Part shown: in pieces, positions 14,383-47,901 of the stretch
How positions within the stretch are numbered: position 1 is the first letter of the stretch
Layout: every line of letters begins with the position of its first letter
Assembly: GCA_964455675.1 (NCBI GenBank)
Contig: CAYVYK010000003.1
Coordinates: 62,001 to 126,000 of the forward strand
Reading direction: 5' to 3'
Length of the DNA: 64,000 nucleotides
Source: an uncultured Methanosarcinales archaeon
GTDB taxonomy: Archaea; Nanobdellota; Nanobdellia; Woesearchaeales; CAYVYK01
Translations under genes and position numbers: made by a program
Notes under the pieces: generated by a model
What the model was told of the DNA's origin: nothing
What the model saw: the letters and a program-made list of their open reading frames with translations, nothing else
The model's database searches: none

Positions 14383-14538
14383 TCACTCGCCGTCATCATA
14401 CGAATCGGGGGATTCCTCGTTGACCTCATCCACTTCATCGTCTTCCAGGAAAAAGTCTTCTGTATAATCCGACTCCTGATCTGGAGCAATACTCTCATAG
14501 AACTCATCCATATCTTCTTCTACGCCCGGATCCTCCAT
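14383..14538 (-). CDS. Hyperacidic 51-aa microprotein
   Basis: Manual translation MEDPGVEEDMDEFYESIAPDQESDYTEDFFLEDDEVDEVNEESPDSYDDGE; GGGGTGA SD upstream; an ATAAATA box further upstream. Confidence 0.7.
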   Translation of the reverse strand: MEDPGVEEDMDEFYESIAPDQESDYTEDFFLEDDEVDEVNEESPDSYDDGE

Positions 14539-24659: not shown

Positions 24660-24968
24660 TCAGACAAGCGAGAGCAGCAAGGCTGCAACGGCAACAATCA
24701 CCGACCCAATCAGGGCATGTTTCATATCCTTTTGCTCGATACCCCACGCAAGAGAAGTCAAGAACAACGCTGAAAGCGCGACGATCTGGAATCGCTTGTC
24801 AAATGCAAGGACAGAAGCTATGCAGCATATTCCACCAAAGATTCCCATCGCCAATCTTGTGTACTTCCTTCCTGGAATGACCTCGGTGTGCGCAACCCTT
24901 GCCGCGACAAATCCCGCGAAGGATGAAATTCCGATGACAATCGCCGCTACCACATTTATAAGTATCAT
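24660..24968 (-). CDS. Small membrane protein
   Basis: Hydrophobic helices; ATGA overlap with the upstream gene; E...G.KY motif. Confidence 0.7.
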   Translation of the reverse strand: MILINVVAAIVIGISSFAGFVAARVAHTEVIPGRKYTRLAMGIFGGICCIASVLAFDKRFQIVALSALFLTSLAWGIEQKDMKHALIGSVIVAVAALLLSLV

Positions 24969-26023
24969 TTTGACCCCCTTGTCAATTCTTGGATCACATT
25001 CCGTAATGTACTCAATAACACACCGTTTCCATCTTGAGTATAGGACGCAAGGTTCCTTCGGTATTCACTTTCTTTACTCAAGAACTCACCTATCACCTCA
25101 CGTGATAAGTGCTGTGACACCATACCATACCCTCTCCTGTCAACTTCGTGGGCATTTAGTATCTGCTCGTACTGTAAGTGCAATGGGATTGCAAGAACTG
25201 GCTTCTTCAGATACACCGCTTCGCTGATCAAACTCAAGCCACCATTCGTGATTACCGCTTTGCATGACGCAAGATCATCAAAGTAGTCTTTGCCAAACAG
25301 GGGCTTCATAGTCACATTGTTGTCTATCCATTCTGGCCCCGGATGGTACACAATAAAATCCTGATCCTTCATGGATTTTAGCACGGGAAGAATAGAGGTG
25401 TACGAGTGACTTGTCTGATAGACGAACACACGATCCCCTTTCCTCTGTTTTGCATTCACAATTTCTGGCTGCACACAGGGAGGAACAAGGAACGTGCCGG
25501 GCTTCTTTGGCTCTCCAGAGAAAAAACCAGTGATAATATAACGGTCGGCCCTCGGAACATACCCTTTCGTCACGATCGTAGCCATCGCTTTGGTCACTGC
25601 ATAGCCCTTCGGCGACGATGATCTCACATTCGTAAGGATATGATGATTACCAAACGCGATCAATGGCACATGCAAGTCATATGCCACCTGAGCAACGATC
25701 GGCTCAAGATCGGTTATAACCACATCTGGTTTCCAGTCCTTCGCAAATTCTCTGATCGCACGGATTGATGATCGAAGAGCCGGATACTGCTTAATGTAAT
25801 CAAGAACCGACTTAACTGGGCGTATGCATAGGTCACCATAACTTAACTCGACACAGCTCACTCTTGTGATATCATTTGGATAGTGTCTACGCAACAAGTC
25901 ATAAGCTTTTAGACCTGCGCAGACATGCACCTCATGATCTCTTTTCAGTTCGTTAATCAATGTGATACCGCGCGTGGCATGTCCAAGCCCCCCGCCCTGT
26001 ACGCCATACAGAATCCTCGCCAT
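24965..26023 (-). CDS. GT-B glycosyltransferase (MJ1255/VC2487-like)
   Basis: ILYGVQG.G.GHATR, PDVVITD.EP, NGG.SLISEA, EQ..NA. Confidence 0.9.
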   Translation of the reverse strand: MARILYGVQGGGLGHATRGITLINELKRDHEVHVCAGLKAYDLLRRHYPNDITRVSCVELSYGDLCIRPVKSVLDYIKQYPALRSSIRAIREFAKDWKPDVVITDLEPIVAQVAYDLHVPLIAFGNHHILTNVRSSSPKGYAVTKAMATIVTKGYVPRADRYIITGFFSGEPKKPGTFLVPPCVQPEIVNAKQRKGDRVFVYQTSHSYTSILPVLKSMKDQDFIVYHPGPEWIDNNVTMKPLFGKDYFDDLASCKAVITNGGLSLISEAVYLKKPVLAIPLHLQYEQILNAHEVDRRGYGMVSQHLSREVIGEFLSKESEYRRNLASYTQDGNGVLLSTLRNVIQELTRGSK

Positions 26024-26206
26024 ACCTTCCGATGGTATTTGACTTGTTTAAAAATTTATGCAGCTCTCATGACTGACACGATCCATAAGCATCCCGAGTA
26101 TTTTATGGTACCATACTAGACAGATGACATGGTAGATAACCAGATAGATAAAGAGTATTCGTAAGCTCAAGATAGATCATCGAGATAGACCATCGCGAGC
26201 ATTCCT

Positions 26207-26647
26207 CTACCACAAGAATATCCACGAAAGAATTGCCAACAGCAGAGAACCCACATAATACAATGGAACTTGCATGCGTCCAATTCCGATCCACGGATAC
26301 CACGCTGCGTCTTTTGGATTCCAACACTTCAGTCCCATCAGAGGATTCGCGAGAAACCACACAACATCTTCTACGACTAATCCAGAGAGGTACGCACTCA
26401 GCAAAATACCTAGTAGCTTGACGTTAAAACCTGACAGCGCCCAAGGAAGTACAAAAAGAAGTGGGTATGAAACAAAGAACAGCCAGAAATGATATGCGGT
26501 GAGAAGCGTATATTTTCCGACCTCAACTTTCCAACCCCTCTTTCCTTTATCCCAGGGACGATTCTCTTCAATTGTTGCTTCCCATATTCCGGTAGCTATC
26601 ATCGCAGCGTATATCACGAGAAATATTTGATAGACTTCCATGAACAA
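26207..26647 (-). CDS. Conserved membrane protein
   Basis: WE..IE....W, TAYH, EDVVWF..NP; several TM helices. Confidence 0.75.
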   Translation of the reverse strand: MFMEVYQIFLVIYAAMIATGIWEATIEENRPWDKGKRGWKVEVGKYTLLTAYHFWLFFVSYPLLFVLPWALSGFNVKLLGILLSAYLSGLVVEDVVWFLANPLMGLKCWNPKDAAWYPWIGIGRMQVPLYYVGSLLLAILSWIFLW

Positions 26648-26694
26648 CTCTGATCGGGAGGAGTATATATCTCTATTGATAGTATCTCACTAGC

Positions 26695-26856
26695 TCAGTA
26701 GAAGTCACAGAACATATTGTCCATCTCCCACTTGCTGAGCTTCTTCTTGTTCAAGTTGCTCAGGACGGACTTTTTGCCCTTTGACCCTGTCACTTCATCA
26801 AAGATGTACTCTTCTTCATTGTTGTCTTCGAGGGTGATGTCCAGCTCATCCGGCAT
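26695..26856 (-). CDS. Unannotated 53-aa small protein
   Basis: Manual translation MPDELDITLEDNNEEEYIFDEVTGSKGKKSVLSNLNKKKLSKWEMDNMFCDFY. Its initiation region GAGGTATAACTATG is identical to that of dnaK (12483-12496). Confidence 0.75.
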   Translation of the reverse strand: MPDELDITLEDNNEEEYIFDEVTGSKGKKSVLSNLNKKKLSKWEMDNMFCDFY

Positions 26857-26870
26857 AGTTATACCTCAAT

Positions 26871-26972
26871 GCAAATAAATTCCTGGGAGTATAACCAAAG
26901 GCCGTGGGGCCCTCGGTCAGCATCGGGGGGATGTTCTCGAGGAATGAGAATACACTACCCAGGAACATTTGC
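26871..26972 (-). ncRNA. Structured four-way-junction RNA (5' leader of the 53-aa ORF)
   Basis: Closing stem GCAAAU/AUUUGC + UUCCUGGG/CCCAGGAA + AGUGUA/UAUACU encloses three hairpins; G-U pairs favour the minus strand; TATA box upstream at about 26993-27003. Confidence 0.7.
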
Positions 26973-27037
26973 TACTGTCTAGTAGAAATAACTTATATAT
27001 AAATTTTTCTTTTTGTTAGTACTCTTGAGTAGTGTTT

Positions 27038-27631
27038 TCAGACTTTCAGAGTGCCGATGCTCCTCTGCAACCGATGGAGGAACTCATCCTTTCTTTCCAT
27101 CTTTTTAGTCGCTTCAGCAGCGAGTATGACAAGCCCTTTGTGATCCACAGCCCATTCATTGTCCTTCTTCACCACAGCCTCAATGGACTCATTACCAATT
27201 ATCTCGACAACTATTTTTCCGTGAAGTGCCATAATACCTGCTCGTTTCACGCCACCCCTTGCACACCACAAAAGAAGGGCGTCAGCATGACGCAAGCTCC
27301 TGCAGCACACATGAACAATAAATGACTCCATCTTGAACCATACCACGCCCTTTGACTCTTTTGCGATAACCTTTTTCAACGCTGAAACGCTTGGCCGTCC
27401 GTGCGTGACATACAACCAGTGCGTCTCGTTCTTACGCGCTGGATTCCTCGTTAAAAGAAGTACTCGACCCGAGCATGATGACGTCGTGAAATAATCTGGC
27501 AAGGCGTTGAGATTGCGAATTAATGGAGCAATCTTTAGGTCTATGCCACCCTTCTTACTCCTATCGGTCCGAAGTTGCAATCCGGCCTTTTGCTGATCAA
27601 AGCGGTCCATACACTCAGAAGAACTACGCAT
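27038..27631 (-). CDS. taw3: tRNA wybutosine-synthesizing protein 3 (TYW3/Taw3)
   Basis: D.SKKG.ID..I, YFTTSSCSGR, WL...H, I.HV.C. Confidence 0.92.
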   Translation of the reverse strand: MRSSSECMDRFDQQKAGLQLRTDRSKKGGIDLKIAPLIRNLNALPDYFTTSSCSGRVLLLTRNPARKNETHWLYVTHGRPSVSALKKVIAKESKGVVWFKMESFIVHVCCRSLRHADALLLWCARGGVKRAGIMALHGKIVVEIIGNESIEAVVKKDNEWAVDHKGLVILAAEATKKMERKDEFLHRLQRSIGTLKV

Positions 27632-28445
27632 GCTTAAATGATTTTTCCTGTATGAACACCCGCATACGCCTCACAAACTCTGTGGCTTCCTTATGATATG
27701 CATCAAACTGACTGCCAGAAATTTCCTTCAGCTGTCGATGAGTAATCAGCTTGGAAAGATTGTAGAACTTCCTCATCGTCACCGCATACCTATGCTCAAG
27801 AAGACCTTTTCTCACAAGGGTTGCCTCAAGCATGTCAGCAACATGATCAGGCGAAGGCGGAATCTCATTCATGCACATCAAGGACGCGTGAGCAGCATCG
27901 ATCACTGCCCAATACAAATCCAGCGTTCCCTGCAACAAATGCCATTTCGCATTATGCAGTGTTGCAGGAGCCCTGCCAAAATACACCCAGACACTCTCCA
28001 TTGTCGGACGAATTCTGCCCTGCTCTAGAAGCATCTGCATCGGCTCAAAAAAACCGGTATCAATGAGCGCAATACCATCACGCATGACATTGATCGCGAT
28101 AGGATCTCCACTCCTCAGCATCTCCCAGAATGTGCTCAGCTTCAACGTCGTGATGTGAAGCTTCTCGGAAACCTTGTGAATCAAACCTTGGATCACAATG
28201 CGATACGCCTCAACAGCCTCAGGAGTCATGATAATCTTTACATCATCCACGATCAAGAGGATATCAATATCGTCTGGAGGTGTATCAGTCTGCACCCTTG
28301 CGCGGCTCCCAAACAGCACTGCAGCACGCAAAAAGTTACCGAGTTCCTTGTGCGCAAGTTTCACAAACTGATACGCTGTATCCACGTGAGTCTTGTGATA
28401 CTTATGCGCGTTCGTCAGCTTACGCTCTTCTATTTTAAAGTCCAT
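27624..28445 (-). CDS. Minimal nucleotidyltransferase fused to a HEPN-like domain
   Basis: LFGS.AR....DDIDILLIVDD; C-terminal helical domain with LY.A....AHA.L and PPSP.H. Confidence 0.85.
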   Translation of the reverse strand: MDFKIEERKLTNAHKYHKTHVDTAYQFVKLAHKELGNFLRAAVLFGSRARVQTDTPPDDIDILLIVDDVKIIMTPEAVEAYRIVIQGLIHKVSEKLHITTLKLSTFWEMLRSGDPIAINVMRDGIALIDTGFFEPMQMLLEQGRIRPTMESVWVYFGRAPATLHNAKWHLLQGTLDLYWAVIDAAHASLMCMNEIPPSPDHVADMLEATLVRKGLLEHRYAVTMRKFYNLSKLITHRQLKEISGSQFDAYHKEATEFVRRMRVFIQEKSFKHA

Positions 28446-29610: not shown

Positions 29611-29707
29611 GGGCCGGTAGCTCAGCCTGGAAGGTGCTACGACACTTGGGCAACAGAGCATCTGCCTTTTAAGCAGATGGTCGCGAGTTCGAATCTCGTC
29701 CGGCCCG
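29611..29707 (+). tRNA. tRNA-Lys(TTT) with a D-loop intron (29631-29653, position 19/20)
   Basis: Acceptor GGGCCGG/CCGGCCC; TCTGC-CT-TTT-AA-GCAGA; TTCGAAT T loop; BHB GCCT/GGGC with GG^A and AA^C bulges; spliced length 74 nt. Confidence 0.92.
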
Positions 29708-31463: not shown

Positions 31464-33266
31464 ATGAGCGAAGTCTACCTCAACGGAAAATTTGTCGGCA
31501 CGGTTGAAAACGGGCAGGACTTCGTCCACCAGTTCCGGAGCGACCGAAGAAAAAGCATCATCAGCCCATTCGTCAGCATACGCTATGATGAAATGATAAA
31601 CACGATCCATGTGGAATGCGGACGGGGACGAATCATGCGACCGGTCATCATTGTCCGGGACGGACAGCCCCTCTTCACCGAAAAGCATCTCAAACAGCTC
31701 AGTAAAAAAGAGCTCACATGGACAGACCTTCTCGAGCAGGGAATCATCGAATACCTTGACGCATCCGAGGAAGAAAATGCCCTGATCGCCTTCATGGAAA
31801 AGGATCTCACACCCGACCATACACATATGGAGCTCACACCGCTCGCACTTCTCGGCCTTACCACATCACTAGTTCCTTACGGCAATTACAACCAATCAAC
31901 ACGACTTAATGCAGGAAGCAAGAACCAGAAACAAGCAGTAGGGTTTTACGCAGCAAACTTTCCTGTGCGGATTGACATGGATGTCAACCTCCTGCATTAT
32001 CCACAAGTTCCAATTGTGAACACCGCGATGCACGAAATCAGCGGATACGAGAAACATCCCGCAGGACAGAATGTCGTCGTTGCAGTCCTCTCCTACCGCG
32101 GATACAATATGGAAGATGCGGTCGTGATCAATCGCGCATCCATCGACCGAGGATTCGGACGAAGCACCTATTTCCGGCCAGCAGTCGCAGAAGAGCTCCG
32201 CTACAGCGGAGGCCTCATGGATACTATCAGCATTCCTGATAAAGATGTTAAAGGATACAAATCAGAGAAGGACTACAAGTTCCTCGAAGACGACGGCATC
32301 GTGTTTCCCGAAGCTGATGTAAAGGAAGAAGATGTTGTCATCGGCAAGACATCACCACCACGATTCCTCTCCGGAATGGACGAGTACAGCCTCGCATCAA
32401 ACACGAGAAGAGAAAGCTCAGTTGCGCTACGGCATGGAGAACTTGGGACTGTTGACTTTGTACTTATCACAGAGAATGAAGAAGGAAACAGACTTGTCAG
32501 CGTACGCCTGCGAGAACAAAAAATACCAGAGATCGGAGACAAATTCACATCACGACACGGACAGAAAGGAGTCATCGGGCTCATCGTCGAACCAGCAGAC
32601 ATGCCGTTTGCTGCCAGCGGAATGGTGCCAGACATCCTGTTCTCGCCGCACGGAATCCCAAGCCGTATGACAATTGCACACCTCCTTGACCTCATCGGAG
32701 GAAAAGTAGGATGCCTTGCAGGAAGACACATCGATGGAACAACGTTCCACGTCGAAAAGGAAGAAGACATTCGCAAAGAACTTCAGGAACTAGGCTTTCG
32801 AGAAAGCGGACTTGAAACTCTCTACAACGGAGCAACTGGAGAAAAATACGAAGCACGCATCTACATTGGAGACGCGTACTATCTCAAGCTCAAACACATG
32901 GTCAGCAACAAGATGCACTCCCGCGCGCGAGGACCCATCCAGCTCCTCACAAGACAGCCTACAGAAGGACGCGCAAAAGAAGGAGGCCTGCGCCTTGGAG
33001 AAATGGAGAAGGATACATTCGTCGCGCACGGCGCGTCACTCCTCCTCAAAGAGCGATTCGACGCGGACAAGACCATCGTGCCTATCAGCGAAACAACCCA
33101 CAATATCGCAATCTACGACACATACAAAGGAAAGGCATACGATCCCCTAGGTGGGGAGACCGAGGAAATAAGCTTCGTGGAAATGAGCTATGCGTTCAAG
33201 CTCCTCTTAGAAGAGCTGCGTGCGCTAGGCATCTATCCCAAGATAATCCTTGAGGACAAGTATTGA
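31464..33266 (+). CDS. rpoB1: RNA polymerase subunit B' (Rpo2C)
   Basis: GYNMEDA, GDKF.SRHGQKG, PSRMT, KLKHMV, LTRQPTEGR, GGLRLGEME. Confidence 0.98.
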   Translation: MSEVYLNGKFVGTVENGQDFVHQFRSDRRKSIISPFVSIRYDEMINTIHVECGRGRIMRPVIIVRDGQPLFTEKHLKQLSKKELTWTDLLEQGIIEYLDASEEENALIAFMEKDLTPDHTHMELTPLALLGLTTSLVPYGNYNQSTRLNAGSKNQKQAVGFYAANFPVRIDMDVNLLHYPQVPIVNTAMHEISGYEKHPAGQNVVVAVLSYRGYNMEDAVVINRASIDRGFGRSTYFRPAVAEELRYSGGLMDTISIPDKDVKGYKSEKDYKFLEDDGIVFPEADVKEEDVVIGKTSPPRFLSGMDEYSLASNTRRESSVALRHGELGTVDFVLITENEEGNRLVSVRLREQKIPEIGDKFTSRHGQKGVIGLIVEPADMPFAASGMVPDILFSPHGIPSRMTIAHLLDLIGGKVGCLAGRHIDGTTFHVEKEEDIRKELQELGFRESGLETLYNGATGEKYEARIYIGDAYYLKLKHMVSNKMHSRARGPIQLLTRQPTEGRAKEGGLRLGEMEKDTFVAHGASLLLKERFDADKTIVPISETTHNIAIYDTYKGKAYDPLGGETEEISFVEMSYAFKLLLEELRALGIYPKIILEDKY

Positions 33267-33269
33267 GGA

Positions 33270-35861
33270 ATGACCATGGACGAAAACATACACGTTTACA
33301 AGAAGATCAAGGCAATCTCCTTTGGACTGTACAGTCCGCACATGATCAAGAAAATGGCCTCTGTCAAGATCGTCACGCCAGAGCTCTACGACAAAGAAGG
33401 ATACCCAGTCGACGGCGGCCTCATGGACATACGGCTTGGAGTCATCGACCCAGGCCTCAAGTGCAAGACATGCGGCAGCAAGATCAAAGAATGCCTTGGG
33501 CACTTTGGATACATCGAACTCGCTCGGCCGATCATCCACGTCAAATTCGTCGGAGTCATATACAACCTCTTGCGCAGCACATGCCGCGACTGCGGACGCG
33601 TGCTTATCCCTGATAACCGCATCACTAAAGTTGAGAAAGAACTTGAACGAGCGGAAACAGAAAGGCCTGTCGAGAGCAGACGGTCAGCGCTCCAAGGATT
33701 CATCAGCCAGTTCAAGGGCATTGACAAATGCCCTCACTGCAAGGCGAAACAATTCAAGATCACCCTCGAGAAACCAACGACATTCCTCGAGAACGAAAAG
33801 CGCATCAGCCCGATCGAGATCCGGACAAGGCTCGAAAAGATCACGGACTCAGACTGCGAAGTATTTGGGCTTAACCCAACGGTCGCGCGACCCGAATGGA
33901 TGGTCCTTACCATTCTTCCCATTCCGCCAGTCACGATGAGACCAAGCATTACCCTCGAAACAGGAGAGAGGAGCGAGGATGATCTCACGCATAAGCTTGG
34001 GGACATTGTGCGCATCAACCAGCGGCTCTTTGAAAACATCAACGCAGGAGCACCAGAAATCATCATCGAAGACCTTTGGGACCTTCTGCAATACCACATC
34101 ACCACATTCTTTGACAACTCCATCACGCAGCTTCCACCGGCGCGGCACCGGAGCGGACAGCCACTCAAGACGATCACGGAACGCATCAAAAGCAAGGAAG
34201 GTCGCATCAGGCACAACCTTGCAGGAAAGCGTACGAATTTCTCAGCGCGCACCGTCATCTCACCAGACCCCTGTATCAGCATTATCGAAGTCGGTGTTCC
34301 CATGGCCATCGCCATGAAACTTACTGTTCCAGAGACTGTAAACCACTGGAATGCAGAGTACGTGCGAAAATTCGTCGAGCGTGGCCACAAAGTGTATCCA
34401 GGAGCGAACTATATCATTCGGCCAGACGGCAAGAAGAAAAAGATAACCGATGAAACCAGGGAACAGGCACTAGAAGAATTGCAGCCAGGGTACATTGTGG
34501 AACGGCACCTCCTTGATGGGGATATCGCGATCTTCAACAGACAGCCAAGCCTTCACCGCATGAGTATGATGTGCCACCGCGTGAAAGTCCTGCCCGGAAA
34601 GACACTCAGGCTCAATCCAGCAGTATGCCCTCCATACAACGCAGACTTTGACGGTGATGAAATGAACCTGCACATCCCGCAGACAGAAGAAGCGCGCGCG
34701 GAAGCAGAAATCCTCATGCAAGTCCAAACACAGCTCATCAGCCCAAGGTATGGCCTTGCCATCATCGGATGCAGCCAGGACAGTATCAGCGGCAACTACA
34801 TGCTCACAAGGTACATGCACTTTACGAGAGAAAACGCCATACAACTGCTTGCCACAATCGGAGTCCAGGACTTCTCACGCATTCCAAACAAGCAGACCGT
34901 ATCTGGCAAGGAAGTATTCTCTGTGCTTCTCCCCGAGGACTTCTCCTACGTTGGAAAGTCCAAATCCAAGGACGAGGACGGTACGAACGAGGTTATCATC
35001 GAGAACGGAAAACTCGTGAAAGGAGTCATGGATGCCGCAAACCTTGGAGAAGGCAAGGGACTCATGCTCCGCAATATCCATAAGAAGTATGGAGCTGACA
35101 AGACGCTCATCATCCTCCAGAACATCTTCAGGCTCGGCTGCGATGTTCTCCAGAACGTTGGATTCACGTCAGCACTCTCTGACACTGACCTCCCGAAAGA
35201 TGCGCGAGAAATGATCCATAAGACGCTCGACACCGCGGAAAAAGAAGTATTCGAACTCATCGAACGATACCGGCGTGGAGAACTCGAAGTATTGCCAGGA
35301 AGAACGCTAGCCGAAACGCTTGAGCTTCGCATCCTTGAGTTACTCAACAAGGCGCGTAACGAATCAGGAGAGATCGTCGGAAAATTCAGCAATAAAAACA
35401 CTCATACACTCATCATGGTCACGTCAGGAGCGCGTGGAAACCCAACAAGCTTGGCACAGATGGCAGCATGCGTTGGGCAGCAAGCCATGCGCGGACGAAG
35501 GATCGAAAAAGGATTCCGCGGACGCACGCTCTCCCACTTCAAGAGAGGAGACCTTGGGCCCAAAGCGCACGGATTCATCAAAGACGGATTCAAAAGCGGC
35601 CTTGACCCATCCGAATTCTTCTTTGCAGCCATGACGGGACGCGACAGCTTGATGGACACTGCGCTACGCACGCCTAAATCAGGATATCTCTACAGAAGGC
35701 TCGCAAATGCCATGCAAGATCTTAAAGTCGAATATGACAGCACCGTTCGTGATTCTAGCGGAAAAATCATCCAATTCCAATATGGAGAAGACGGCATTGA
35801 CGTATCCCGCAGTGAAAAAGGAAAAGTCCAGGTCAAGAAGATCGTGGACGAAATCGTTTAG
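33270..35861 (+). CDS. rpoA1: RNA polymerase subunit A' (Rpo1N)
   Basis: CKTC...[23 protein letters not shown] catalytic motif. Confidence 0.99.
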
Positions 35862-46535: not shown

Positions 46536-47254
46536 GGAAAAGATGGTTTTCTACGCGAGACGCAAAGGCCGTCGTTGAACGAGTCACGACAGGCCTAGGC
46601 AACCTCACCGACAGGATCGAGGAACTCGAAAGCAACGAGCAACGCCGAGTGCGGAAAATACGACGAGCGATCGGGTACGGACTCGTGGTTGCAGCAATCA
46701 CCATACCTCTTGCCTGGTACTTTCGAACACACACAAACGAGATCACAAGCACACCACAGGCTCAAGCAGAACTCAAGGAAGCCCTTCATGAGCGCGAAGA
46801 GCTTCAGGCGTACCGCTATGAGGGAGGAAGGCCTGATGCTGACTATTACCGACTATACCACAGGTCCCTTCGGCACAATGAGCAGACCGAAAGACTGGAA
46901 GCGTGGGCCCGCAATGCGGTCGGAGCGCCCGAAGATCTTGTCAACCAATGCGTTTGGCTTGATCGCGACACGGACTCGCGAATCCTCAGATTATTCAGCA
47001 ACGAGATCTACGTACGACTGAACAAGACGAGCGAGAGGAACCGAGCTCACCAATCACAACACTCTGCAGACACCATCATGGGCATGCTACGGACGGCGCA
47101 GGATGACTTCGGACAGGATAGTGACCTGCACCGGGGGGCGATCAATCTGCTGTACCAAGAGTATATTTCACGACTGCGAGCACGACTCATGGGTACGGAC
47201 GCCACACGAGTACGAGAAGTCTTCGAGGGACTTGGATACACCTCGAGACCTTAG
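46532..47254 (+). CDS. Hypothetical single-pass membrane protein
   Basis: ATGA overlap with the upstream gene; coiled coil, one TM helix, helical C-terminal part. Confidence 0.7.
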   Translation: MRKRWFSTRDAKAVVERVTTGLGNLTDRIEELESNEQRRVRKIRRAIGYGLVVAAITIPLAWYFRTHTNEITSTPQAQAELKEALHEREELQAYRYEGGRPDADYYRLYHRSLRHNEQTERLEAWARNAVGAPEDLVNQCVWLDRDTDSRILRLFSNEIYVRLNKTSERNRAHQSQHSADTIMGMLRTAQDDFGQDSDLHRGAINLLYQEYISRLRARLMGTDATRVREVFEGLGYTSRP

Positions 47255-47901
47255 TATTCTATTCTACGCTCCCATGCGTCAAGCCGCTCAAGCACAGGAG
47301 CACGATCTGATTCACTCATGATCTCTTTCCACTCTTTATACTGGACCTTCTGACGAACCCGGTCGACGATCATCTGGCATACCTTCTTGTTGTAACCGAA
47401 CTTGTCCTCGAGAAAGCGAACCGTCGCGCACAATTCTCCCGAGGCACTGCGACTGAACGATGCCTTTGCTCCCTCTCGGTCTTTACTTGGAATCCTGTTC
47501 ATCGTGTACTTATACTCCATGAGAAAGGTACTGTATACACGATCCAGCTTTGCATCCACGAGCTTTCTCGTCGTGGCGAACAGCTTCTCCTCCTCATGCG
47601 AAGAATTCCATTCATACGTCTTACCCGTTGATTTACAGAAATCAAGAATGCACTGGTACCTCTCTGCCGTAACCGACATGACTCTGAGACGACTGTCAAT
47701 ACTCATCTGCTGCCATTCCCCAGGAGAACTGATCCGCTCATCCAATTTCCTACACAGATCATCAAAAACTTCCCGATCACTCTTTGTGCGCTCATACGCA
47801 ACAGGAACATCGGCCTGCTGCCAGTCTATATGGTCCCAGGCAGTCCAGACTCCATACCCAACAACAGCCGTTGTCAGAAGCGCTGCAAGCCCCTTCCTCA
47901 T
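47251..47901 (-). CDS. Hypothetical protein with an N-terminal signal/anchor
   Basis: MRK plus hydrophobic stretch; helical remainder. Confidence 0.7.
   Translation of the reverse strand: MRKGLAALLTTAVVGYGVWTAWDHIDWQQADVPVAYERTKSDREVFDDLCRKLDERISSPGEWQQMSIDSRLRVMSVTAERYQCILDFCKSTGKTYEWNSSHEEEKLFATTRKLVDAKLDRVYSTFLMEYKYTMNRIPSKDREGAKASFSRSASGELCATVRFLEDKFGYNKKVCQMIVDRVRQKVQYKEWKEIMSESDRAPVLERLDAWERRIEY

Follow-up and report, generated by a model that had tools for sequence, protein, structure and literature searches.

On the minus strand of the window (the whole 64-kb stretch of archaeal DNA that was analysed) lies a self-contained unit in which a promoter is followed by a structured non-coding RNA and a genuine gene for a small protein. 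The RNA at 26871..26972 is probably an expanded variant of a two-helix motif found in homologous Woesearchaeal loci, and this motif is, by its covariation and its fixed position, a real and undescribed RNA family of the order. The explanation that best joins the observations, to which an even chance is given, is that of one transcription unit in which an enlarged, lineage-specific version of the motif leads the small-protein gene as a leader and attenuator. The original prediction had proposed such a stand-alone unit in a DPANN archaeon, and both the unit and the host (Woesearchaeota) are borne out. When the sequence is read, the BRE/TATA element, palindrome, RNA of ~100 nt, Shine-Dalgarno sequence (SD) and 53-aa ORF all lie where they had been placed on the minus strand. 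The features are as follows.

27003..26695, minus strand: whole transcription unit, promoter to ORF end (sequence read)
26993..27010, minus strand: A-rich BRE-like stretch and TATA box TTTATATA (27003-26996) (sequence read)
26972..26992, minus strand: promoter-proximal AGTTATTT and palindrome CTACT-AGAC-AGTAG (26985-26972) (sequence read and genome search)
26871..26972, minus strand: structured RNA domain, predicted four-way junction including the outer extension of the closing helix (minimum free energy, MFE, and shuffles)
26972-26871, minus strand: closing helix of 15+5 bp, interrupted
26879..26966, minus strand: family-equivalent core
26966-26958 and 26887-26879, minus strand: P1, GUUCCUGGG paired with CCCAGGAAU; bulged U at 26957, then AGUGU/AUACU
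26950-26934, minus strand: hairpin 1, UUCUC[AUUCCUC]GAGAA, equivalent to P2 of the family
26933-26921, minus strand: hairpin 2, CAUC[CCCCC]GAUG, bearing the C-run that is kept unpaired in the family
26918-26893, minus strand: hairpin 3, GACCGAGGGCC and GGCCUUUGGUU as an 11-bp stem around a CCAC loop
26857..26881, minus strand: linker with the weak U-rich tract AAUUUAUUUGC and the SD GAGGU (26867-26863) (sequence read)
26695..26856, minus strand: 53-aa ORF with its ATG at 26856, a small protein of acidic/basic character, mostly disordered by prediction (conservation)

The fold of the RNA is highly stable, with an MFE of -48.3 kcal/mol compared to -24.9 +/- 3.4 kcal/mol for 200 dinucleotide shuffles (z -6.97), none of which is as good. 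The predicted structure is the four-way junction that had been proposed, with a 20-bp interrupted closing stem and three hairpins, and the same fold is predicted within the entire 5' part of the transcript from 20 to 55 C. The three hairpin loops have a predicted unpaired probability of 0.9-1.0 at 20, 37 and 55 C, and that of hairpin 2 is about 1.0. The stretch was found in two DNA sequencing runs of one study and in no RNA run listed, and the only variant in the two DNA runs is a population variant, U>C at 26957 (one contig, depth 2.7), which falls on the bulged base.

A covariance-model search of the RNA against Rfam, whose families include 6C, RsaE, riboswitches, tRNA and the C/D and H/ACA sRNAs, gives no match, in keeping with the earlier statement that it belongs to no described family. 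At gathering thresholds, Rfam returns only two tRNA matches over the 64-kb window, both elsewhere, and at E<=10 the region 26500-27200 gives only two chance matches of 14-15 bits. The canonical relatives of the motif have no Rfam match at E<=1. A tRNA-like cloverleaf was rejected, as neither ARAGORN nor Rfam finds one and the hairpins lack tRNA proportions. A 40-aa ORF (26968-26846) overlaps the RNA, but the relatives have no ATG or ORF there, and a coding reading was dropped. The stretch is a single copy in the genome, and whole-genome searches of 151 genomes found one motif copy per genome, which rules out a dispersed repeat.

The 53-aa ORF is, by its conservation, a real gene, which supports the earlier claim of an unannotated coding sequence. 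Of 401 genomes of the order, 188 contain a homolog at E<=1, with many matches at 1e-8 to 1e-15, and a profile search matched 67 of 301 genomes, all 67 listed as the same order. In addition, 603 protein clusters match at E<=1e-5, with close relatives at 60-71% identity among them, and the named clusters among the 120 matches listed are all "hypothetical". Pfam gives nothing at E<=0.01 for the 53-aa protein and only nine scattered families at E 0.04-0.9. A PDB profile search finds no match for it, its longer fused forms give none either, and the ESM Atlas yields no credible match (best score 0.82, to clusters without a name). AlphaFold2 predicts a mostly disordered protein, with a mean pLDDT of 61 and helices only at residues 31-35 and 42-49, and the model is therefore too poor for a fold search. 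The protein has a Lys-rich centre, GKKxxLSxLNKKK.

The TATA promoter of the unit reads as near-consensus. The string TTTATATA-NN-AGTTATT occurs once in the 1.72-Mb genome, and the same promoter form is present upstream of homologous genes and of other genes in relatives. Leaderless genes behind this promoter type in a relative have their ATG 30 nt after the first T of TTTATATA, which would place the transcription start of the unit at ~26973. The palindrome lies between the TATA box and this inferred start and is therefore, by its position, a promoter element mostly upstream of the transcript. The genome has four palindromes of the CTACT-N4-AGTAG kind, all with the same spacing from a TATA-like box upstream. 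The three others are followed by 125-390 nt without an ORF, and the sequence downstream of them is not notably structured (z 0.24, -0.70 and 0.20).

The motif family consists of a closing stem P1 of the CCCAAGG/CCUUGGG type, an A/U-rich bulge, a hairpin P2 of the form UUCUY/RAGAA, an unpaired UCCCCC and, in most copies, a U-tract. UCCCCC is near-invariant and unpaired in 18 aligned relatives, and the emphasis that had been laid on C-rich unpaired sequence is thus upheld for this RNA type. In the alignment of these 18 sequences (A9), 95.3% of the cells are paired and 9 of 13 pairs show changes on both sides. None of 500 shuffles is as good, and slid controls are 30-66% paired. These statistics are overstated, because the sequences are related and the alignment was fitted to the model structure. 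Among the P1 and P2 pairs at least 19 are G-U/U-G on the sense strand, and the reverse-strand scores are far lower, for example 17.3 compared to 73.5 bits on the sense strand with covariance model R2. R2 recovered the motif on the gene strand upstream of the gene at 9 of 70 homolog loci (E<=0.01), 7 of which make up its training set. It was also detected at 20 of 80 additional loci from genomes and metagenomes, and about 14 of these are new. Four weak whole-genome covariance-model matches were judged spurious by eye: one inside a gene (G015), one antisense to a 5'-UTR hairpin (G034) and two with no promoter (G128, G026).

The position of the motif is fixed. All 23 motif copies have a TATA box 28-53 nt upstream of the model start, and the structure begins a few nt past the inferred start site in every copy. 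The next ORF follows 7-46 nt downstream in 19 of the 23 copies, which leaves no room for another promoter. Among those 19 ORFs, 18 are genuine genes (16 for the small protein and 2 for a coiled-coil ORF), and the +7 ORF of L154 is probably spurious. In 18 of the 23 copies a run of T4 or longer occurs no more than 15 nt from the P1 end, compared to a background of 0.13. The setting of the C-run varies between a hairpin loop, a junction and a hairpin of its own, and some relatives carry insertions between the C-run and the 3' strand of P1 (L033, L149 and L151 types; G007). The motif is absent from about three quarters of the homologous loci, and the gene therefore does not need it. On the other hand, two genomes of 99% and 95% completeness (G007 and G133) carry the RNA with no detectable homolog of the protein.

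The assignment of the RNA at 26871..26972 to this family is probable and draws on several shared features. Its TATA box starts 37 nt before P1 (family 28-53), and its ATG, that of a small-protein family member on the same strand, lies 22 nt after P1 (family 7-46). P1 is GC-rich, of the CCYRRG/CYYRGG type and at least 7 bp long, and its CCUGGG/CCUAGG flavour is also found in L006, L010, L018 and L159. The UUCUC/GAGAA stem of hairpin 1 is identical to P2 of the canonical copy L090, with which the hairpin 1 region has UAUUCUCAU...CUCGAGAA in common, while its loop, AUUCCUC, has no C5 run. An unpaired C6 is instead present in a separate hairpin directly after P2, whereas in canonical copies the run lies in the P2 loop; a C-run outside the P2 loop also occurs in relatives (L033 type, G007). 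No T4 or longer tract is found within 15 nt after P1, only AAUUUAUUUGC (U3AU3), and attenuation may therefore not operate in this copy.

Formal searches do not recover the copy as a whole. In the window, neither covariance model (R2 or R3, filters off) returns a match at E<=10, and 171 nt searched alone with R2 yield only two local pieces, hairpin 1 on P2 at 4.2 bits and hairpin 2 on the loop part at 4.4 bits. The missing global score is explained, not excused, by an insertion of 48 nt and by the changes in the P2 loop. A loose descriptor that asks for a P1 of 7 bp or more with UUCUY and C5 inside matches 16 of 123 distinct upstream regions including this one, and the span between the P1 ends is 86 nt here and 40-49 nt in the other 15. 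A slightly stricter version (P1 of at least 8 bp) matches 6 places on both strands of the 1.72-Mb genome, about 2e-6 per position, which is no rarer than in shuffled sequence (6 compared to 4-10). The loose descriptor was for this reason dropped as a stand-alone membership test, and the homology rests on position and short shared strings. Hairpin 3 is an insertion absent from every relative examined. Single-protein scans of genome and metagenome contigs found no close relatives for a comparison of hairpins 2 and 3, and a DNA search of 401 genomes with the stretch matched essentially its promoter part only.

In the preferred reading, the near-consensus TATA promoter would drive a structured 5' RNA of ~100 nt followed 22 nt on by the gene, and the C-run in a hairpin of its own together with the further inserted hairpin would make the four-way junction. 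The mechanism proposed for the family, a leader and attenuator with a read-through-dependent gene and a C-rich docking site for a trans factor, is given somewhat less than an even chance. The stem and U-tract would stop part of the transcripts and release a short stable RNA, and read-through would be the sole route to expression of the gene, which lacks its own promoter. A trans factor, be it a protein or a G-rich RNA, would dock on the exposed pyrimidine/C-rich element and set the balance between stop and read-through. A further, clearly weaker possibility is that the RNA, once released, uses the C-rich element to act in trans itself. A more speculative and rather doubtful extension regards the C-loop element as the first DPANN riboregulator family, at once a small-protein leader and a released small RNA. 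Its invariant UUCU..UCCCCC would capture a G-rich partner and couple expression of the small protein to that partner, with the copy at 26871..26972 as a multivalent, sponge-like elaboration. Candidates for the partner in such a scheme are G5-type ribosome-binding sites or a protein.

The strongest rival, tentative as it is, holds that the RNA is released as a trans-acting or dual-function sRNA whose C-rich or CCUC loops pair with the G-rich ribosome-binding sites of other mRNAs. What is conserved is indeed an unpaired pyrimidine/C-rich string in varying structural settings, followed in 18 of 23 copies by a stem and U-tract, and the RNA persists without the protein gene in G007 and G133. The order has GGGGGU-type SDs and a second promoter-driven pyrimidine-rich sRNA type, and the copy at 26871..26972 displays three C-rich loops. 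Moreover, strong duplexes with loop 2 are commoner at start regions than inside genes (174 compared to 106). However, the pairing itself finds no statistical backing. The original prediction had offered anti-SD targeting as one of two options, and by the control it proposed, the complementarity of the loops is no better than that of composition-matched shuffles: at 2726 start regions, in a test that is rough because gene starts were called crudely, 8, 35 and 12 of 60 shuffles of the three loops give at least as many strong duplexes. Sites complementary to UUCUYAUCCCCC in five RNA-bearing genomes (13, 18, 36, 26 and 35) show no excess over controls (8, 22, 33, 24 and 35).

The two targets named at first are both present and are not special. 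UUGAGGAAUG occurs at 33263-33272, which is the junction of the rpoB stop and the rpoA' start (Rpb1 domains confirmed), and also in front of an acidic 51-aa ORF (14383-14538, minus strand). TTGAGGAATG has 20 occurrences in the 1.72-Mb genome, and the 20 genome occurrences of the 10-mer common to both targets count against specific pairing. In most copies, furthermore, the gene lies too close behind the RNA for the latter to be an independent unit. Mimicry of or pairing with rRNA was also considered and rejected: the rRNA operon region has no C5 run, and the strongest 16S duplexes (-12 to -16 kcal/mol) involve GGCGGGGGAGCA and other G-rich 16S stretches with no conserved logic.

An autoregulatory leader, in which the encoded small protein or its complex binds its own C-rich hairpin and limits expression, is improbable. 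It would account for an RNA that stands almost exclusively before this one gene family or its two-gene operon, with a patchy, lineage-specific distribution among homologous loci as known from ribosomal-protein leaders, and the Lys-rich centre of the protein could contact RNA. In contrast, the retention of the RNA in two genomes with no detectable protein homolog argues against feedback from the encoded protein. By prediction, this protein is also mostly disordered, and it has no known RNA-binding fold. Less probable still is a passive 5' stabiliser, a stem-loop that shields a highly expressed short mRNA from 5'-to-3' decay with no ligand or partner. The near-consensus promoter and the start of the structure a few nt after the inferred start in all copies would suit it, as would the apparent absence or shortness of the leader in most other mRNAs with this type of promoter. 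However, a mere stabiliser needs neither the near-invariant UUCU...UCCCCC nor a conserved U-tract.

Least likely is a switch in cis that opens and closes the ribosome-binding site of the 53-aa ORF, be it an SD switch, an RNA thermometer or a riboswitch. This option of the original prediction finds no support. The leader domain, shut by its 20-bp helix, is self-closed and does not touch the SD: the UUGAGG SD could pair with CCUCGA of hairpin 1 and is predicted paired in the folded transcript (unpaired probability 0.00-0.05), but its predicted partner is a CCUCGA inside the ORF, not in the leader; that SD:ORF hairpin is unremarkable (z -0.92, with 35 of 200 shuffles equally good) and predicted to stay closed at 55 C; the SD region of 15 relatives is predicted 17-63% unpaired with no shared sequestering helix; and there is no Rfam riboswitch match, nor is the downstream gene a transporter or an enzyme.

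Several known systems resemble the RNA in part. 6C RNA of Actinobacteria and RsaE/RoxS of Firmicutes are short multi-hairpin RNAs in which an unpaired C-run in the hairpin loops is the most conserved part, and they have their own promoter and end with a stem and U-tract. The present RNA is likewise a multi-hairpin RNA with a conserved unpaired C-run, with C-rich sequence in all three loops of the copy at 26871..26972. It differs in its archaeal host, in its place directly before one small-protein gene that lacks its own promoter, and in having no Rfam match (E<=10; canonical relatives E<=1) and no excess of G-rich targets. Bacterial attenuators and ribosomal-protein leaders are structured 5' mRNA ends with a patchy, lineage-specific occurrence before one gene family. 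They are similar in the order of 5'-end RNA, stem and U-tract, and gene, and in their distribution. No alternative antiterminator pairing was found in the leader, and archaeal termination does not require a hairpin. Unlike ribosomal-protein leaders, the RNA shows no rRNA mimicry, and the downstream protein is not known to be RNA-binding or ribosomal.

Within the archaea, sRNA41 of Methanosarcina mazei is proposed, according to a review (PMC5867862), to repress translation by masking ribosome-binding sites, with the ACDS operons as experimentally supported targets. It is the archaeal precedent for the anti-SD idea; its targets are supported, whereas here the complementarity is no better than that of shuffled loops. 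The two RNAs are not homologous, given the lack of an Rfam match and the different phylum. A second Woesearchaeal promoter-driven small RNA, with a AUCACCUCUUUU stretch, a hairpin and a U-run, is present in genome L185. It has the same promoter class, an unpaired pyrimidine-rich stretch, a strong stem and a U-tract, and also no Rfam match. In contrast, its conserved sequence is a near-copy of the 16S 3'-end core (11/12 nt; UCACCUC exact), and it is organised as a 5' tail and terminator, sometimes in tandem, with no link to the small-protein gene.

To our knowledge, conserved structured regulatory RNAs are scarce in archaea, and we know of none described for DPANN archaea. A literature search showed no such DPANN RNA among its 15 best matches, and Rfam 15 has no match. 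The analysis yields a covariation-supported RNA motif tied to a widespread, uncharacterised small protein that is predicted to be disordered (603 clusters), a defined promoter class for the order, and a covariance model with which metagenomes and metatranscriptomes can be searched. Should the C-rich element prove to be a recognition site, it would offer a way into post-transcriptional control in organisms not yet grown alone.

The flagged unit reads, from its sequence, as a promoter-proximal structured RNA leading a predicted small-protein mRNA, and this RNA is probably an enlarged variant within an undescribed Woesearchaeota RNA family. The layout put forward in the original prediction (promoter, palindrome, RNA domain, three hairpins, SD, and ORF) is all present on the minus strand:

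Features of the flagged unit and their basis
27003-26996, minus: TATA box TTTATATA with an A-rich BRE-like run (sequence)
26985-26972, minus: palindrome CTACT-AGAC-AGTAG, following AGTTATTT (sequence)
26972-26871, minus: RNA domain with a 15+5-bp interrupted closing helix (predicted fold)
26950-26934, minus: hairpin 1, UUCUC[AUUCCUC]GAGAA (predicted fold)
26933-26921, minus: hairpin 2, CAUC[CCCCC]GAUG (predicted fold)
26918-26893, minus: hairpin 3, 11-bp stem with CCAC loop (predicted fold)
26867-26863, minus: SD GAGGU, following the linker AAUUUAUUUGCAUU (sequence)
26856-26695, minus: 53-aa ORF (ORF reading)

The fold has a predicted energy of -48.3 kcal/mol compared with -24.9 ± 3.4 kcal/mol in 200 dinucleotide shuffles (z -6.97). 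Folding the entire 5' portion of the transcript at 20, 37, and 55 °C retains this structure, and the three loops are predicted to be unpaired with a probability of 0.9-1.0 at these temperatures. The surrounding genes (24965-28445, minus) encode a GT1-family glycosyltransferase, the tRNA-wybutosine enzyme TYW3, a 146-aa membrane protein that has no Pfam match and follows the small ORF at a distance of 48 nt, and a 273-aa protein that weakly matches Pol-beta nucleotidyltransferase. Elsewhere in the window, a tRNA model matches 29648-29702 (plus strand) at 29 bits, exactly the gathering score, over 55 nt covering model positions 1-71. ARAGORN reports no tRNA there, and the match may represent a truncated, intron-bearing, or otherwise atypical tRNA.

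The 53-aa ORF holds up as a real gene of an uncharacterised family, judging by its homologs. Relatives occur in 188 of the 401 genomes of the order, 5 of them unpublished (tblastn-type search, E≤1), and dozens of the matches reach 1e-8 to 1e-15. A 50-member profile matches 67 of 301 genomes in a phylum-level sample at E≤1e-4, including 1 unpublished genome, and all 67 are of the same order. At E≤1e-5, 603 protein clusters match, and every name among the 120 clusters listed is "hypothetical protein". The window's own protein is present in the protein collection (P0010), and thus some gene caller has already called it. The family signature [FY]x[FY]D[EQ][VI]xGxxGKKxx[LM]SxLNKKKLxxxEMD[ED]LF follows an acidic N-terminal tail of variable length. 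The family has no credible Pfam match and no PDB match by profile, no longer fused forms were found, and an ESM Atlas search with the small protein returned unnamed clusters only. Its AlphaFold2 model has a mean pLDDT of 61 and two short helices, and the protein is therefore probably mostly disordered. In many relatives, a 40-60-aa coiled-coil ORF lies directly upstream and forms a conserved two-gene unit with the small-protein gene (L047, L050, L055, L058, L063, L065, L071, L074, L075, L076, and L081). Its motif is roughly SF+KV+xDxxxLKxNxxxW...L, with LE-rich heptads at the end. In several loci, an Rpp21/Rpr2-like zinc-ribbon ORF, identified by eye, ends just upstream.

Reading of the regions upstream of the homologous genes reveals a shorter RNA at the same place. 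It comprises a closing stem (P1) RCCCAAGG/CCUUGGGY, an A/U-rich bulge, a hairpin (P2) UUCUY/RAGAA, and an unpaired (A/C)UCCCCC. Covariance models of this motif were built over three rounds. The model R2 detects it on the gene's strand at 9 of 70 homolog loci (E≤0.01), 7 of the 9 being its training set, and three further copies recognised there by eye score weakly. On further genome and metagenome contig loci, R2 matches 20 of 80, of which about 14 are new; every match precedes the gene on the same strand. Among 151 genomes searched whole, R2 and a second model, R3, each match 7, with at most one match per genome. Five of the matched genomes hold true copies, and four other whole-genome matches were judged spurious from their setting: within a gene, on the antisense strand of a UTR, or lacking a promoter. 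Consistent with the earlier statement that the RNA was not recognised as a described family, Rfam yields nothing for the window RNA at gathering thresholds, only two chance matches of 14-15 bits in the flagged region at E≤10, and no match for the canonical, shorter copies. The best 15 matches of a literature search on structured or small RNAs of DPANN and Woesearchaeota contained nothing relevant, which weakly suggests that the motif is not in print. As a separate observation, GGGGGGAUAAGAA, which is exactly complementary to UUCUUAUCCCCCC of the motif, lies within a 5' UTR hairpin CUUAUUC-GGGGG-GAUAAG at locus L091 (G034:C1:264347-264394, plus-strand reading). This hairpin precedes a small basic protein carrying two copies of a GWLYFVDK..R.KM.RGG repeat, and genome G034 lacks both the RNA motif and the small protein.

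The pairing of the motif is supported by an 18-sequence alignment (A9), whose rows are related and fitted to the model structure. Standard pairs fill 95.3% of its cells, and changes on both sides occur in 9 of 13 pairs (29 cells). On all five measures the alignment exceeds each of 500 column shuffles, and sliding the 3' partners by 1-3 columns lowers pairing to 30-66%. Seven of the eight P1 pairs covary, while P2 is mostly conserved in sequence. Sense-strand G-U/U-G pairs number at least 19 in P1 and P2, and reverse-strand scores are much lower (73.5 vs 17.3 bits at L076); the structure therefore belongs to RNA of the gene's strand. The architecture is also fixed. A TATA box lies 28-53 nt ahead of the model start in 23/23 copies, placing the motif at the very 5' end of the predicted transcript. 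The next ORF begins 7-46 nt past the motif in 19 of these 23 copies, and 18 of the 19 are genuine genes: 16 are the small protein itself and 2 are the coiled-coil ORF preceding it. The remaining ORF, at +7 after the motif in L154, is probably spurious. A gap of this size is too short to hold another promoter, and transcription of the gene must therefore cross the motif. In 18/23 copies, four or more consecutive U occur no further than 15 nt from where P1 ends, against a background of 0.13 at the same loci, with a p-value that is overstated by the relatedness of the sequences. A stem and U-tract ahead of a promoterless gene is, by its sequence, the anatomy of an attenuator or a 5'-UTR-derived small RNA.

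The window copy is probably an expanded variant of this motif. Its spacing is that of the family (37 nt from TATA box to P1, 22 nt from P1 to ATG), its P1 flavour CCUGGG/CCCAGG recurs in L006, L010, L018, and L159, and its P2 UUCUC/GAGAA is the same as in the canonical L090, with which it has the strings UAUUCUCAU and CUCGAGAA in common. An unpaired C6 directly follows P2. Relatives also include forms in which an insertion separates the C-run from the 3' strand of P1 (the L033, L149, and L151 types, and genome G007). A loose descriptor matches 16 of 123 distinct upstream regions, and a stricter one (P1 of at least 8 bp, not 7) matches only 6 places in the whole host genome, which gives ~7e-4 chance matches expected per 420-nt upstream region; taken alone, the descriptor matches shuffled sequence about as often (4-10 places vs 6 in the genome). 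Neither R2 nor R3 finds the window copy, and searched alone it yields only hairpin 1 (4.2 bits, on P2) and hairpin 2 (4.4 bits, on the C-loop). It spans 86 nt between the P1 ends compared with 40-49 nt in all 15 other descriptor matches, and lacks the U4 tract. Covariation supports the family core, and the window's two extra hairpins, for which no close relative was found, are a folding prediction. The sole population variant seen, from one contig at a depth of 2.7, is U>C at 26957, where the closing helix has its bulged base.

The host genome, whose contig 3 supplies the window, measures 1.72 Mb, is 99% complete, and is the sole member of its family among the genomes compared. The loci related to the flagged unit are attributed to Candidatus Woesearchaeota or Nanoarchaeota, in agreement with the proposed DPANN placement. 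The form TTTATATA-NN-AGTTATT occurs once in the host genome. Many relatives have the same promoter form ahead of the homologous small-protein gene, and a handful of other genes per genome also lie behind it; genome G078 has 8 matches vs 0 for the reversed control. In several G078 genes of this promoter type, the ATG is located 30 nt downstream of the TATA box's first T, which would place the start site near 26973 and the palindrome at about -12 to +1. The palindrome would thus be a promoter or operator element, mostly upstream of the inferred start. The class combines TATA, AGTTAT, and a palindrome of the form TACT-N4/5-AGTA whose end coincides with the inferred start site, and a DNA search with promoter plus RNA matches essentially the promoter part alone, in 230/401 genomes of the order (10 of them unpublished). 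CTACT-N4-AGTAG has four exact copies in the host genome, each behind a TATA-like box, and may be a shared operator or initiator element:

Palindrome promoters of the host genome (sequence)
Window 26972-27010, minus: promoter of the flagged unit
G000 C2:2750: second copy
G000 C7:43170: third copy
G000 C9:19273: fourth copy

The 125-390 nt downstream of the three other copies contain no ORF of at least 40 aa and are not notably structured.

The next most likely reading after attenuation is that a released RNA acts in trans. Genome G007 (99% complete) carries a variant with P1 CCCAAGGGC/GCUCUUGGG, an inner hairpin, an unpaired C6, and U7 (z -3.05), and G133 (95% complete) carries a canonical copy; neither has a small-protein homolog by profile at E≤1. 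The pyrimidine/C-rich string is unpaired across variants although its structural setting differs, as would be expected of a recognition element read as sequence. Together, these observations weaken autoregulation and keep the small-RNA idea alive. On the other side, 12-mers complementary to UUCUYAUCCCCC are no commoner than the reversed control in five genomes with canonical copies, and a search for partners or mimics in 16S or other rRNA gave nothing convincing.

The narrower proposal that the loops target SD regions is not supported. UUGAGGAAUG is indeed found at both sites named for it, the rpoB stop/rpoA' start junction and an acidic 51-aa ORF, but it is no special pairing, as this 10-mer occurs 20 times in the host genome. 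Duplexes of -12 kcal/mol or stronger number 78, 174, and 168 for the three loops at 2726 crudely called start regions vs 45, 106, and 148 inside genes. Composition-matched loop shuffles do at least as well in 8, 35, and 12 of 60 trials, and the excess therefore reflects composition rather than sequence. A cis switch or thermometer is disfavoured, since the leader domain is predicted to close on itself, the hairpin pairing the SD UUGAGG with CCUCGA of ORF codons 8-10 (the same hexamer as in hairpin 1; 26826-26869, minus; predicted at 20-55 °C) is ordinary (z -0.92, 35/200 shuffles as good) and still closed at 55 °C, and 15 relatives share no SD sequestration, their SD region being 17-63% unpaired.

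Another type of promoter-driven small RNA occurs in this order; it lies outside the window at G000 contig 12, ~47175-47295 (plus; L185:75-195), and also in L038, L176, L179, L180, L181, and L182, the last being the only locus cited here from an unpublished genome (G205). In this type, an unpaired pyrimidine stretch is followed by a strong CCC...GGG hairpin and then a U-run, with z -5.46 in the host genome, three tandem units in G078, and no Rfam match. Its AAUCACCUCUUUU near-copies the 16S 3'-end core GGAUCACCUCCUUUU, UCACCUC being exact in both, and it is complementary to the host's common SD context. Of the two, the flagged RNA is the weaker candidate for an anti-SD sRNA.

By likeness, the closest known systems are C-rich-loop sRNAs of bacteria such as 6C and RsaE, together with sRNA41 and bacterial leader attenuators. 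One review describes archaeal sRNA41 as masking ribosome-binding sites (PMC5867862). The flagged RNA is a member of none of these systems, because it has no Rfam match and no targets could be demonstrated. Most likely, the proposed Woesearchaeota family would serve as a leader and attenuator, in which the stem and U-tract would release a short RNA and a trans factor would bind the unpaired C-rich element.
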